From: Candidatus Sigynarchaeum calidifontis
GTDB lineage: Archaea; Asgardarchaeota; Lokiarchaeia; Sigyniarchaeales; Sigyniarchaeaceae
Reading direction: 5' to 3'
Assembly (NCBI GenBank): GCA_030587475.2
Contig: JAUQYZ020000014.1
Span: forward strand, 1 to 17,247
DNA: 17,247 bases
Below, in pieces: positions 5,933 to 15,255 of the stretch (within the stretch, counting starts at the first letter, position 1; each line of letters begins with the position of its first letter). The translations under genes were made by a program, and so were the position numbers. Below the pieces are notes generated by a model, which did no database searches, had not been told where the DNA came from, and was given only the letters and a program-made list of their open reading frames with translations.

Positions 5933-7264
5933 ATGCCCACGCGTTCCACGCATTCCAAGCTCGATGACAAGACAAGGAACAAGATCGCCGCCGAAATCGA
6001 GTACCGGCCGATCAAGATTGATGAACTGGAACAAATGGGCAAAGTCTTCAACATCGCCTTCCATTCAACTTCCAATCCCAAGGATTATGGCAATCGGTTC
6101 AAGAACTGCACTGAACCGGTTTTGGAGCGCCAGGTCGTCGCCGTGCACGAGGGAAAGGTGATTGCCGGTATCCGCGCGGACTACAAGCCGCTTTATTTCA
6201 ACGACGGCCCCGGGGGCAAGATGGCCAGGCATGAATGCGGCGAGATCAATGACGTGGCCACGCTTCCGTATTACCGCGGCATGGGCATCTCGCGGCGCCT
6301 CATCAACATGGCGATCGATTACATGGATCGCCAGGGTTGGGACCTTTCTGTATTACAAGCAGACCCGAAGTACTATGCCAAGGACCTGTACGAGTCGGTT
6401 GGTTTCAAGACGCTACCGAGCACGGGCGACATTTTTACAGTAGCTTTCGGCAGCTGGCGGGCCAGGTTCTCGTGGTACGGGCCACTGGCGCTGCTCTTCC
6501 CCTTGCTCCCGCCGATCGCCCGTCGCGTCGCTCCAAAGCCCCCAGCATTTTGCATGGACTTGATCCGAACCCCGAACCCTCGCGCCACGATTCCACAAGG
6601 CACCGCTTCGCCGGAAGCAAAGCCTTCCGTAGTACGCGTGACCGGCCAGATCGCCGCCTCGGATCCGTGGGTGCTTCGCTGGCGTGAATGCATGCACGTG
6701 ATGAAACAGCAAGTCCAGGGCTTGCACGATGCCCTCTTGCACGAGTTGTGCTTGGAACATGACCTCAACGAGCCGGCCCCGGCACGAATAAAAAAGTGGG
6801 TCGCGAGGACCAAGGCGGGAAAGGCATTTCTCGCCGAGACCGGCGGTCTCAGGGGCTATGCTCTCCTCCTCGAGCCGGCCCCGGGACGGCCACACTTGAC
6901 GGCCATCCCGTCACCGGAGGTGCCCGCGGCAAGCATCGTGGGTGGCGCGCGGTTCAAGGTGGAGCACTTCCAACGTGGCCGGCTGGGATTCACGCTTCCC
7001 ATGATCGACGCGTGCTGGGTGCTCCCGGAATATCAAGGACGTGGTTGGGGCAAGTTACTCGCCGGGCAAGTGAAGGCGTGGCTGGGACGGGTATTCCCGA
7101 TCATCGTGTGCCGGGCCGCGTCGGGCAACGTCCCCTTCCGAAAGGTGCTGCTGGGCGCCGGGTTCCACGAAATAGCCGGCGGGATAACCATGGTTCGACC
7201 AGGGAAGAACAAGGAACTTTACGACAAGCTGGCACGTGCCGTGGAGCCATGGGTGTTGTATTGA
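5933..7264 (+). CDS. Tandem GNAT N-acetyltransferase (two GNAT domains)
   Basis: Two acetyl-CoA-binding motif A copies: VATLPYYRGMGISRRL (with LYESVGF) and WVLPEYQGRGWGKLL (with LLGAGF). Confidence 0.85.
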   Translation: MPTRSTHSKLDDKTRNKIAAEIEYRPIKIDELEQMGKVFNIAFHSTSNPKDYGNRFKNCTEPVLERQVVAVHEGKVIAGIRADYKPLYFNDGPGGKMARHECGEINDVATLPYYRGMGISRRLINMAIDYMDRQGWDLSVLQADPKYYAKDLYESVGFKTLPSTGDIFTVAFGSWRARFSWYGPLALLFPLLPPIARRVAPKPPAFCMDLIRTPNPRATIPQGTASPEAKPSVVRVTGQIAASDPWVLRWRECMHVMKQQVQGLHDALLHELCLEHDLNEPAPARIKKWVARTKAGKAFLAETGGLRGYALLLEPAPGRPHLTAIPSPEVPAASIVGGARFKVEHFQRGRLGFTLPMIDACWVLPEYQGRGWGKLLAGQVKAWLGRVFPIIVCRAASGNVPFRKVLLGAGFHEIAGGITMVRPGKNKELYDKLARAVEPWVLY

Positions 7265-9846: not shown

Positions 9847-11115
9847 TCATTTGCCACGGGGTAGAAGGACGAGGGAATTGTTAAGGATCGTTTCTACCTT
9901 CTCGTAGGCTGCGATGACTTCGGTCTGCGACGCGAGGCTTGACCGCTGGATCTGGGTCAAGCTCTCGATCAGTCCCGCCGCGAGGGTGGCCGCATCGCCG
10001 TTTAACCGCGAAAACGCTTCCTTGCTCTCGTGAACGAGCATCATCAGGACCACGCGCGTTTGCATGATGTTCCCTTGCTGGTTCTTGAGGATCAAGTGCA
10101 CGATGGACAAGATCTCGGCGATGAAAGTTGCAAGATGCTCGGGCGCGGATAACTCGTGCAGCTGGTTCAGAAAAGACGAGGTAAAAGTCTTCACGGCCCA
10201 ATGGTACGCGTACCGGCTATTGGACCTGAGCATCCCGACAAGCAAGTCCTTGTAATCCTTCGTGAAGATGTGGGGAGAAGCATGCTCCAGGACCTTCAAG
10301 ATCTTCTGGATCTTGAGATGTATGATGCGATCCGGGTTCTCTAGTTCCTTGATGACGAGGGGAACGAGCCTTTTAGCGAAACGGGGTTCGGCCTCGCTGA
10401 AGTCCGCGAGGAGAGAGAGCACTTGCAATTTCAAGAGTGCATTATCCGTGATCTCGAGGTTGGATAGCAGCACGGCGAATAGCTCGTCCTTGACGGCGTG
10501 CAAGAGATCCAGCAGTGCCTTGTACGCGACTGCTTTCACGGTATCGTCATCATCGACCAACCGGTTAACGAGGGCCGGGACGAGATCGATGACGGCGGGG
10601 AAATATATCTTGCCGAGCTTGCTGATGCGCCACACGGCCGCTTGCCTGTCCGCCGCGCCGTGCAAAGACAGCTTTGACGCTTGAAGATATGCGACGTCGG
10701 CGATCCCGCGCTGCAAGAAATCACGCACCTGGCCGGAATCCTTGCTGATTCTCTCTAACGCCTTCAGCGCGTGGAATTCGAGGACGGGTTCGATGTCAGA
10801 TCTCAGCAAGATCAGGATGAATGGATAGATGAGATCCCGGGAGAATACCGGGGAGATGGCACCAATTTCCCCGAGATAATGGATGCCTTGCACGCGATTG
10901 TCGATATCCTTGTCCACGAGCGCCTTCATGAGCAATTTCATGATGGACAAGGCGAGTCTTGGCTTTTGAAGGGCGATCTCCCCGAGAAACTGGTAGGCGA
11001 GCCGGCGCTCCTCGCTATCTTGCGAGAAATACAGCCTCGAGAGGTTGTCGCCCACGCTTTCCTCGTGATCGCTCGTAACTCCCTCACCTCGGCCGCTGGT
11101 GGTTCTTGTTAGCAC
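9847..11115 (-). CDS. HEAT/ARM-repeat alpha-solenoid protein
   Basis: Repeated HEAT-like units: LLMKALVDKDIDNRVQGIHYLGEI, LVPALVNRLVDDDDTVKAVAYKALLDL, LVPLVIKELENPDRIIHLKIQKIL and LLVGMLRSNSRYAYHWAVKTF. GTG start is uncertain. Confidence 0.85.
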   Translation of the reverse strand: MLTRTTSGRGEGVTSDHEESVGDNLSRLYFSQDSEERRLAYQFLGEIALQKPRLALSIMKLLMKALVDKDIDNRVQGIHYLGEIGAISPVFSRDLIYPFILILLRSDIEPVLEFHALKALERISKDSGQVRDFLQRGIADVAYLQASKLSLHGAADRQAAVWRISKLGKIYFPAVIDLVPALVNRLVDDDDTVKAVAYKALLDLLHAVKDELFAVLLSNLEITDNALLKLQVLSLLADFSEAEPRFAKRLVPLVIKELENPDRIIHLKIQKILKVLEHASPHIFTKDYKDLLVGMLRSNSRYAYHWAVKTFTSSFLNQLHELSAPEHLATFIAEILSIVHLILKNQQGNIMQTRVVLMMLVHESKEAFSRLNGDAATLAAGLIESLTQIQRSSLASQTEVIAAYEKVETILNNSLVLLPRGK

Positions 11116-11263
11116 CCGCGGTCATTTCAACTAGCACATGTACCCGTCTATTATTAATTAGCTCCTTCTCACGAGGGGGGGAAATTGGTATCACGGTGGC
11201 ATCCCACGGATACACTACGACTCATCCGTAAATATAGTCATTCGGTGCGAGGGAAACGAGCGT

Positions 11264-14993: not shown

Positions 14994-15003
14994 AAAAAAA
15001 AAA
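14994..15003 (-). terminator. T10 terminator immediately after the tRNA-Cys CCA
   Basis: A10 on the plus strand abuts the encoded CCA. Confidence 0.7.
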
Positions 15004-15111
15004 TGGAGCCGGGGGTGGGAGTTGAACCCACGTGAACCAAATCTGCAGTCTGGCGCACGGCCATTGCACGGCCTCTATGCAAAAGCATAGGGACCGCTAT
15101 GCGACCCCGAC
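15004..15111 (-). tRNA. trnC: tRNA-Cys(GCA), CCA encoded, with a 33-nt intron at position 15/16
   Basis: Acceptor GTCGGGG/CCCCGGC; U73 discriminator (Cys identity); T-arm GTGGG-TTCAACT-CCCAC; anticodon arm CCAGA-CT GCA GA-TTTGG. Removing 15064-15096 gives a 75-nt cloverleaf with D-arm GCA-TAGTGGCCG-TGC and a G15:C48 pair. Confidence 0.93.
15064..15096 (-). other. tRNA intron (33 nt) with a bulge-helix-bulge splice motif
   Basis: Outer helix GGUC/GGCC; central 4-bp helix GCAU/GUGC; 3-nt bulges AG^C and AA^U; inner hairpin GGUC-C-CUAUGC UUUU GCAUAG-A-GGCC. Confidence 0.85.
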
Positions 15112-15255
15112 GATGGTTTTCACGTGCTTTCCGGAAATACTAGTGCAAGTTTCGCGGATTTGCACGAAGAATGAATGAAAATTTAGACTTAAATTTAGCC
15201 CGCGCGATGGATACATGATGGCCACGCCACGGGATCGAGGCGGGTCGGGAACGAC

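Follow-up and report, generated by a model that had tools for sequence, protein, structure and literature searches.

The window analysed here, the whole stretch of 17,247 nt, carries on its minus strand (15111..15004) a 108-nt tRNA-Cys(GCA) gene in which 33 nucleotides at a BHB motif separate tRNA positions 15 and 16. On the joint reading of the evidence, this locus is very probably (probability of about 0.88) a real and functional tRNA-Cys(GCA) gene with a BHB intron at 15/16 that would be spliced by the host EndA. A preliminary description had proposed the 33 extra nucleotides at this position, and they were recovered by a BHB scan and by ARAGORN run on the spliced product. For annotation, the genome gains its canonical tRNA-Cys, which is missed or mislabelled by ARAGORN and Rfam, the two finders run. 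The locus also provides a clean, comparatively dated case in which one sub-lineage of Asgard archaea gained a non-canonical intron and its sisters are intronless.

The features of the locus all lie on the minus strand and are given in window coordinates. The precursor gene (15004..15111) includes an encoded CCA at 15004-15006 and is followed directly by a run of 10 T (14994..15003) that likely acts as an archaeal transcription stop. The 5' exon (15097..15111, tRNA nt 1-15) supplies the acceptor 5' strand, U8 and C9, the D-stem 5' strand GCAU, and A14 and G15. The 3' exon (15004..15063, tRNA nt 16-76) supplies the remaining D-arm, the anticodon arm, the variable loop UUCAC, the T-arm, the acceptor 3' strand, U73 and the CCA. 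Between them lies the 33-nt intron (15064..15096, gene nt 16-48), and the gene order around it reads GCAU AG, 33 nt, U GGCC GUGC. The acceptor stem is GUCGGGG/CCCCGGC with a U2:G71 wobble, the anticodon arm, preceded by G26, is CCAGA-CUGCAGA-UUUGG, and the T-arm is GUGGG-UUCAACU-CCCAC. The GCA anticodon (15044..15046), the G37 of the anticodon loop, the U73 discriminator and a standard class I cloverleaf place the gene among tRNA-Cys genes.

The motif at the exon-intron borders is a strict hBHBh'. A central helix of 4 bp separates two 3-nt bulges, which lie on opposite strands, and helices of 4 bp flank them on either side; a complete BHB with flanking helices had been proposed in the preliminary description. 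In the central helix, the exon strand G10-U13 (15099..15102) pairs with the intron strand GUGC (gene nt 43-46; 15066..15069). The 5' bulge, A14 G15^C16 (15096..15098), has its predicted cut after G15, and the 3' bulge, A47 A48^U49 (15063..15065), has its predicted cut after A48. Outer helix h joins G6 G7 U8 C9 (15103..15106) to GGCC (gene nt 50-53; 15059..15062). Helix h' is formed by G17-C20 with G39-C42 and continues, past one C.A mismatch, into a 6-bp CUAUGC/GCAUAG stem, so that the intron hairpin (15070..15095) comprises GGUC/GGCC, the mismatch and CUAUGC-UUUU-GCAUAG. Each flanking helix is required to have at least 2 bp; h has 4 bp and h' has 4 bp plus 6 bp. The geometry is identical to that of the canonical archaeal 37/38 BHB intron, shifted by 22 nt: in both, the intron 3' end is paired with four exon nucleotides upstream, and each 3-nt bulge is cut behind its second nucleotide. 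The strands used are different. On the exon side, the central helix is supplied by the D-stem 5' strand here and by anticodon-loop nt 32-35 in the canonical case, whereas helix h involves nt 6-9 here and the anticodon stem there.

A BHB scanner of our own, which uses the canonical geometry h-H-B-h'...h'-H-B-h with a cut after the second bulge nucleotide, was run on the 4.99-Mb genome. Among the 95,816 candidates of this strict scan, 8, the tRNA-Cys locus included, gave a junction-spanning ARAGORN tRNA after in-silico splicing. Removal of gene nt 16-48 leaves a 75-nt product that ARAGORN calls as tRNA-Cys(GCA). In agreement with the earlier proposal that splicing restores a normal D-arm, this product has the D-loop AGUGGCC, with G15 and G18G19, as well as C48. 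The unspliced gene, by comparison, escapes standard finders, as had been anticipated. Default ARAGORN makes no tRNA call in the window, and its intron mode (-i) miscalls the same coordinates as tRNA-Ser(AGA). In the window, Rfam at its gathering threshold returns no tRNA, and permissive Rfam returns spurious partial matches only. In a whole-genome scan with the Rfam tRNA model, the unspliced gene reaches 23 bits, below the 29-bit cut-off, and this score uses a D-arm copy internal to the intron. A custom tRNA-Cys covariance model, built from three tRNA-Cys sequences, gives 83.5 bits over 15007-15111, whereas the highest-scoring non-Cys tRNAs of this genome reach ~51 bits.

The MFE fold of the precursor (-49.0 kcal/mol) is without the BHB. 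The BHB-constrained fold lies 3.8 kcal/mol above it (-45.2 kcal/mol) and retains acceptor pairs 1-5, the anticodon arm and the T-arm. The preliminary description held that the precursor must unfold both the D-stem and part of the acceptor stem to form the BHB. Opening of the D-stem stands, but that of the acceptor stem does not: a 2-bp h helix (C9-G50, U8-G51) is possible with an intact acceptor stem and suffices, and melting of acceptor pairs 6-7 is therefore optional.

Excision by another path would change the splice product, and was judged highly improbable. The 33 nucleotides could leave in two pieces of 22 and 11 nt, with the middle D-arm copy retained and A16 in place of U16, or through an alternative BHB at gene nt 38-59. 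Direct repeats (GCAUAG twice and GGCCGUGC twice) would let the two-piece path yield a valid tRNA that differs at nt 16 only and that would match the D-arm of intronless relatives. However, two-piece excision was rejected: the 22-nt and 11-nt pieces allow 7 + 9 registers, and a BHB is absent from all of them. In the related contig L201, described below, the GGCC repeat is absent and only a single 15/16 intron works. The alternative motif (15053-15074) has H=4, h=3 with weak U-A/U-G pairs and h'=6, and it consists of the intronic D-arm copy paired with the exon D-stem 3' strand. Excision of nt 38-59 deletes that 3' strand and leaves no plausible tRNA. Cutting there would thus destroy the tRNA, and the motif represents a possible mis-splicing hazard created by the duplication. 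A single 33-nt intron at 15/16 is the reading retained here.

The predicted junction is carried by intronless orthologues. In G001, a genome of the same genus, the syntenic tRNA-Cys gene lacks an intron and reads GCUUAG-U-GGCCGAGC, exactly the D-arm predicted after joining, with a compensatory change at pair 12:23. In the MAG GCA_012798355.1 (L206-208), where the locus is ~76% identical to the window, the syntenic gene is likewise intronless; its exons differ from those of the window at nt 16 and by an additional U in the variable loop, and are otherwise the same. Alignment to an intronless orthologue, with no input from the motif, also puts the 33 inserted nucleotides behind nt 15.

An intron at the same site, such as the preliminary description had proposed to look for in related genomes, was found in a JGI metagenome contig (Ga0172365_10006920, L201). 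Over 5.9 kb, this contig shares 83.8% identity with the window, and it is 99.7% identical to contigs carrying a DHDPS named Ca. Sigynarchaeum springense. Its tRNA-Cys gene has a diverged 30-nt intron at 15/16 with the BHB kept, and the in-silico spliced product is also a tRNA-Cys. The exons are identical at 73/75 positions and the intron at about two thirds of its positions. Relative to the window, G10-C46 becomes G-U (the intron strand reads GUGU, with pairing kept), G17-C42 becomes A-U through changes on both sides, U19-G40 becomes U-A, and a U.U mismatch replaces one pair. In outer h', GGUC/GGCC has given way to AUU/AUU, whereas the CUAUGC/GCAUAG stem core is retained. In these two sequences, the window and L201, motif and position are conserved with pair-preserving changes. 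The pairs were analysed by hand from the sequences; MAFFT is misleading across the intron because the intronic D-arm copy became aligned to the D-arms of relatives. Exons that are more constrained than the intron, together with a kept BHB, are the pattern expected for a spliced functional gene.

The L201 intron also bears on the quality of the assembly. The genome is a MAG (269 contigs, 4.99 Mb, 89% complete, 5% contamination) and the insert contains short repeats, features that could raise the suspicion of an assembly artefact. This explanation is barely credible: the homologous intron at the same site of L201 comes from an independent metagenome, two further assemblies are 99.7% identical to L201 over shared stretches upstream of the tRNA, and repeats of 6-8 nt do not create assembly errors.

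The preliminary description left it to be checked whether this is the only tRNA-Cys gene of the genome, and it is not. A second tRNA-Cys(GCA)-like gene of 83 nt (50.8 bits with Rfam) is located at C266:3184-3266 on the minus strand (L186/L189), so the window locus is not demonstrably essential. This gene has a 3-bp D-stem, a long variable arm, an unusual T-loop UGCAAGU with G at position 55, U73 and G37, and no encoded CCA. Its existence allows for the window gene to be dead, with an unspliced 33-nt insertion, and for cysteine to be decoded by the long-variable-arm tRNA-Cys(GCA) of C266. Such an outcome is considered very unlikely. The insertion falls within a perfect BHB, and the other tRNA features, the CCA and the terminator are intact. 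In addition, two lineages at ~16% divergence have kept the interrupted gene, and between them the exons are 97% identical and the intron is far less similar. Finally, the C266-type gene coexists with a canonical tRNA-Cys in G001, G002, G018 and many other genomes, which makes it an addition and not a replacement. These observations favour a functional, spliced gene in the window. Across the order, blast finds the C266-type gene in 44 of 101 genomes, alongside canonical tRNA-Cys; its relatives include L190-L200, L162 and L163. In the SepRS/tRNA-Cys literature consulted (PMC5424206), no description of this type of gene was found.

Upstream of the window gene, by 71-95 nt, lies a conserved element, GCGCGGGCTAAATTTAAGT (15187..15205), whose putative role is that of a BRE/TATA-like promoter. 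The element is common to L201, L204 and L206, and the G001 version has one mismatch (GCGCTGGC...). It is present upstream of tRNA-Cys in all relatives examined, including L002, and L206 has it as a tandem duplicate. The spacing between element and gene ranges from ~35 to 90 nt, which implies 5' leaders of differing length if the element sets the start of transcription. Antisense pairing between leader and tRNA was considered and rejected, as the 64-nt upstream leader folds on itself and not on the tRNA. In both L201 and L116, the DNA past the tRNA-Cys upstream region runs into sequence homologous to contig C169 (~12.5-15.2 kb) of the window's genome. This arrangement suggests that contigs C127 and C169 are genome neighbours or that a rearrangement occurred.

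The host is an Asgard archaeon, as indicated by a eukaryote-like actin (436 bits), ESCRT-II EAP30 and a DHDPS with 89% identity to the Ca. Sigynarchaeum springense protein. The other closest named homologues of the DHDPS are from Lokiarchaeota MAGs, and a genome-contig search with the neighbouring DHDPS returned only distant bacterial and archaeal homologues (at most 46%). A strict BHB would be open to cleavage by any EndA type. Three ORFs of the host genome have an EndA domain (PF01974 matches). The alpha-like ORF, on contig C178, passes TIGR00324 (75.6 against a cut-off of 59.6) and has its closest counterparts in the alpha subunits of S. tokodaii and A. pernix; it carries the Tyr/His motif and matches without gaps through the N-terminal YGKPIGI-KP stretch. 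A second paralogue, the candidate beta subunit on contig C230, lacks the His and weakly matches the beta-subunit model. This set fits the (alpha-beta)2 type with a broad-specificity loop, which is the type inferred for Asgard EndA by sequence analysis (PMC5829648).

In the proposed pathway, the D-stem 5' strand G10-U13 of the precursor would pair with the intron 3' end, displacing its normal partner and creating the BHB. Cuts after G15 and after intron nt 33 are expected from the host's heteromeric EndA of crenarchaeal type, and an RtcB-type ligase would join the exons, upon which the D-arm could form. G15 would then lie at the ligated junction. On contig C181, the genome encodes TgtA (ArcTGT, tRNA guanosine(15) transglycosylase; 467 bits, above the 350-bit cut-off), which makes this junction nucleotide a plausible archaeosine site that ArcTGT would modify. 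The idea in the preliminary description that G15 modification depends on splicing is speculative. We infer cleavage, ligation and the order of modification; gene, motif, junction and conservation are themselves read in the sequence. With the junction nucleotide at the candidate archaeosine site, the locus offers a natural means of testing whether ArcTGT acts ahead of splicing or afterwards.

The custom covariance model was also searched in 101 genomes of the order, including that of the window (G000). The recovered tRNA-Cys genes fall into six classes, and most genomes are intronless. Introns occur at about 22/23 in two genera, at 37/38 in several genomes, in the variable region in G002 and G048, and in the T-loop in G003, G088 and G083, as well as in L204. 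Nearly every neighbouring lineage has its tRNA-Cys intron at a different position. Among the 101 genomes, the 15/16 intron is found in G000 only, and it is lacking in L204 (80% identical to the window), L206 (76%) and G001. With L201 added, the intron marks one small clade, as judged from these genes, made up of G000 and a S. springense-like lineage. Its presence in these two and not in L204, L206 or G001 points to a single gain in their common ancestor.

The novelty of the splice site itself is modest and had been overrated, because a 15/16 intron is also present in a tRNA-Lys(UUU) gene of the same genome and D-arm introns have been published for Asgard archaea. The tRNA-Lys(UUU) gene (C162, ~11103-11238, plus strand, reaching the contig end; L187) contains a 32-nt intron in which GAGC pairs with exon GCUC, and a second intron follows the anticodon loop. 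The two 15/16 introns share splice position, similar length, pairing logic and the end ...GC AA. Beyond this constrained 3' end, however, the Lys intron has no detectable homology to the Cys intron, and it holds no copy of a host arm. In Atabeyarchaeia and Freyarchaeia, 92-95% of tRNA genes have introns, often at non-canonical positions (Valentin-Alvarado et al. 2024, PMC11291895), and Supplementary Data 4 of that study lists introns starting at gene nt 16-18, including a tRNA-Ser(GCT) of Atabeyarchaeia at nt 16. D-arm insertions are the class that tRNAscan-SE most often misses in Asgard genomes (Goswami et al. 2026 preprint, 10.64898/2026.10.13.758758). The tRNA-Cys intron resembles these published cases in its Asgard host, in being a short intron at a D-arm BHB (33 nt, with a median of ~22-23 nt in the published cases), in being missed by annotators (here ARAGORN and Rfam) and in its lineage-specific gain with intronless close relatives. 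It differs in its isotype and in its Sigynarchaeum-like lineage, of an order that includes Lokiarchaeia-type genomes.

Outside the Asgard archaea, the tRNA-Cys intron resembles the D-loop introns of M. kandleri and A. pernix, with which it shares a location within the D-loop, a heteromeric EndA and a D-arm tertiary core that is barred before splicing. Those introns occupy other D-loop positions, whereas the one described here is immediately 3' of the archaeosine site. The 20b/21 intron of M. kandleri has a relaxed HBh' motif, in contrast to the strict hBHBh' at 15/16. For Thermoproteales, the intron positions named in the reviews consulted include 20/21, 22/23 and 25/26.

The intron of tRNA-Cys is composed largely of sequence that matches the D-arm of its own tRNA. 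It consists of C, an inverted copy (11 nt), UUUU, a direct copy (15 nt) and AA. The direct copy, GCAUAGAGGCCGUGC (15066..15080; gene nt 32-46, intron nt 17-31), matches the spliced D-arm at 14/15 positions and the D-arms of the intronless L206-208 and G002 at 15/15, whereas the BHB requires only its last four nucleotides. The inverted copy (intron nt 2-12) matches the 5' part of the same D-arm at 9/11 positions. In a Smith-Waterman comparison, the intron scores 13 against its own mature tRNA, relative to a shuffle mean of 6.3 (1/1,001, the minimum for 1,000 shuffles) and to 8 for the best non-host tRNA. A score of 13 was reached by 8 of 5,000 shuffles in which the BHB strand was fixed, and an in-register match of at least 10/11 by 1 of 200,000. 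The copy has A at position 16, which is the outgroup state. In both intron-bearing lineages, the exon has U16 and the intron has GCAUAG-A, a combination that argues for a copy as old as the intron itself and against a recent conversion.

These matches raise the tentative proposal, to which slightly less than an even chance is given, that the intron was born by a local self-duplication in which the D-arm of this very tRNA was partly copied and the original D-arm became intronic. In such an event, the original D-arm GCAUAG-A-GGCCGUGC, unchanged in intronless relatives, would have become trapped within the intron, next to an inverted copy of its 5' half and the UUUU loop. The flanking partial copies would have become the exon ends, GCAUAG upstream and GGCCGUGC downstream. 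As the strands of the D-stem are mutually complementary, the duplication would yield the BHB central helix and the h' hairpin almost free. An intron made largely of host D-arm copies appears in neither PMC11291895 nor 10.64898/2026.10.13.758758, and this composition, as read from the sequence, is new relative to the published Asgard D-arm introns. If true, self-duplication would offer a concrete sequence-level route for the birth of a BHB intron in Asgard archaea, a question left open by the 2026 census. The self-copy content also leads to the testable idea that introns may arise without mobile elements or reverse transcription.

Other routes of intron gain have been put forward. Transposition has been proposed for Thermoproteales (Fujishima et al. 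2010, as reviewed in PMC4090602). For the tRNA-Cys intron it was rejected: blastn-short against the genome gave chance matches only, of at most 13 nt, and no second copy, unlike the transposed families of Thermoproteales, in which similar introns occur in other tRNA genes. A separate proposal of intron gain is based on direct repeats near the splice sites at intron borders (Rogers & Bendich 2025, PMC11782384). The repeats observed here are of another kind than short target-site duplications at the flanks: they comprise a full internal copy of the D-arm and an inverted one.

Self-copy content was also examined in four other introns that differ between G000 and G001. In tRNA-Ser(GCU) of G000 (C205, ~44595-44708, minus strand), a 31-nt insert in the variable-arm region that is absent in G001 (L172) contains CUGCGAGGcUU, a near copy of the downstream exon sequence CUGCGAGGgUU (T-arm 5' half), with marginal significance (p ~0.03). 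No significant self-copy was found in the 28-nt D-loop intron of Asp(GUC), present in G000 only (C115, ~6711-6811, minus strand, compared with G001 L170), in the 30-nt D-loop intron of Ala(GGC), present in G001 only (L171, compared with G000 C248), or in the 30-nt 37/38 intron of Gln(UUG), present in G001 only (L176, compared with G000 C251). The remaining tRNA-Cys insertions that were scored in the order represent about a dozen independent intron types, and self-copy content was not conspicuous in any of them. Self-duplication thus appears to be one route of intron birth and not the general one.

Both genomes of the genus also contain dense arrays of ~11-19 intronless tRNA genes of many isotypes, located at C212:11601-17719 and C82:46-1816 in G000 and at C193:3668-8376 in G001, and there is no Cys among the ARAGORN-called tRNAs of the two G000 arrays. 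These arrays contrast with the dispersed genes that bear introns. For tRNA-Phe(GAA), both arrangements are seen in G000: the gene in the C212 array is intronless, whereas that at C78:14626-14735 (plus strand, L188) is interrupted by a D-arm insert of ~35 nt, for which our own scanner detects only a weak BHB.
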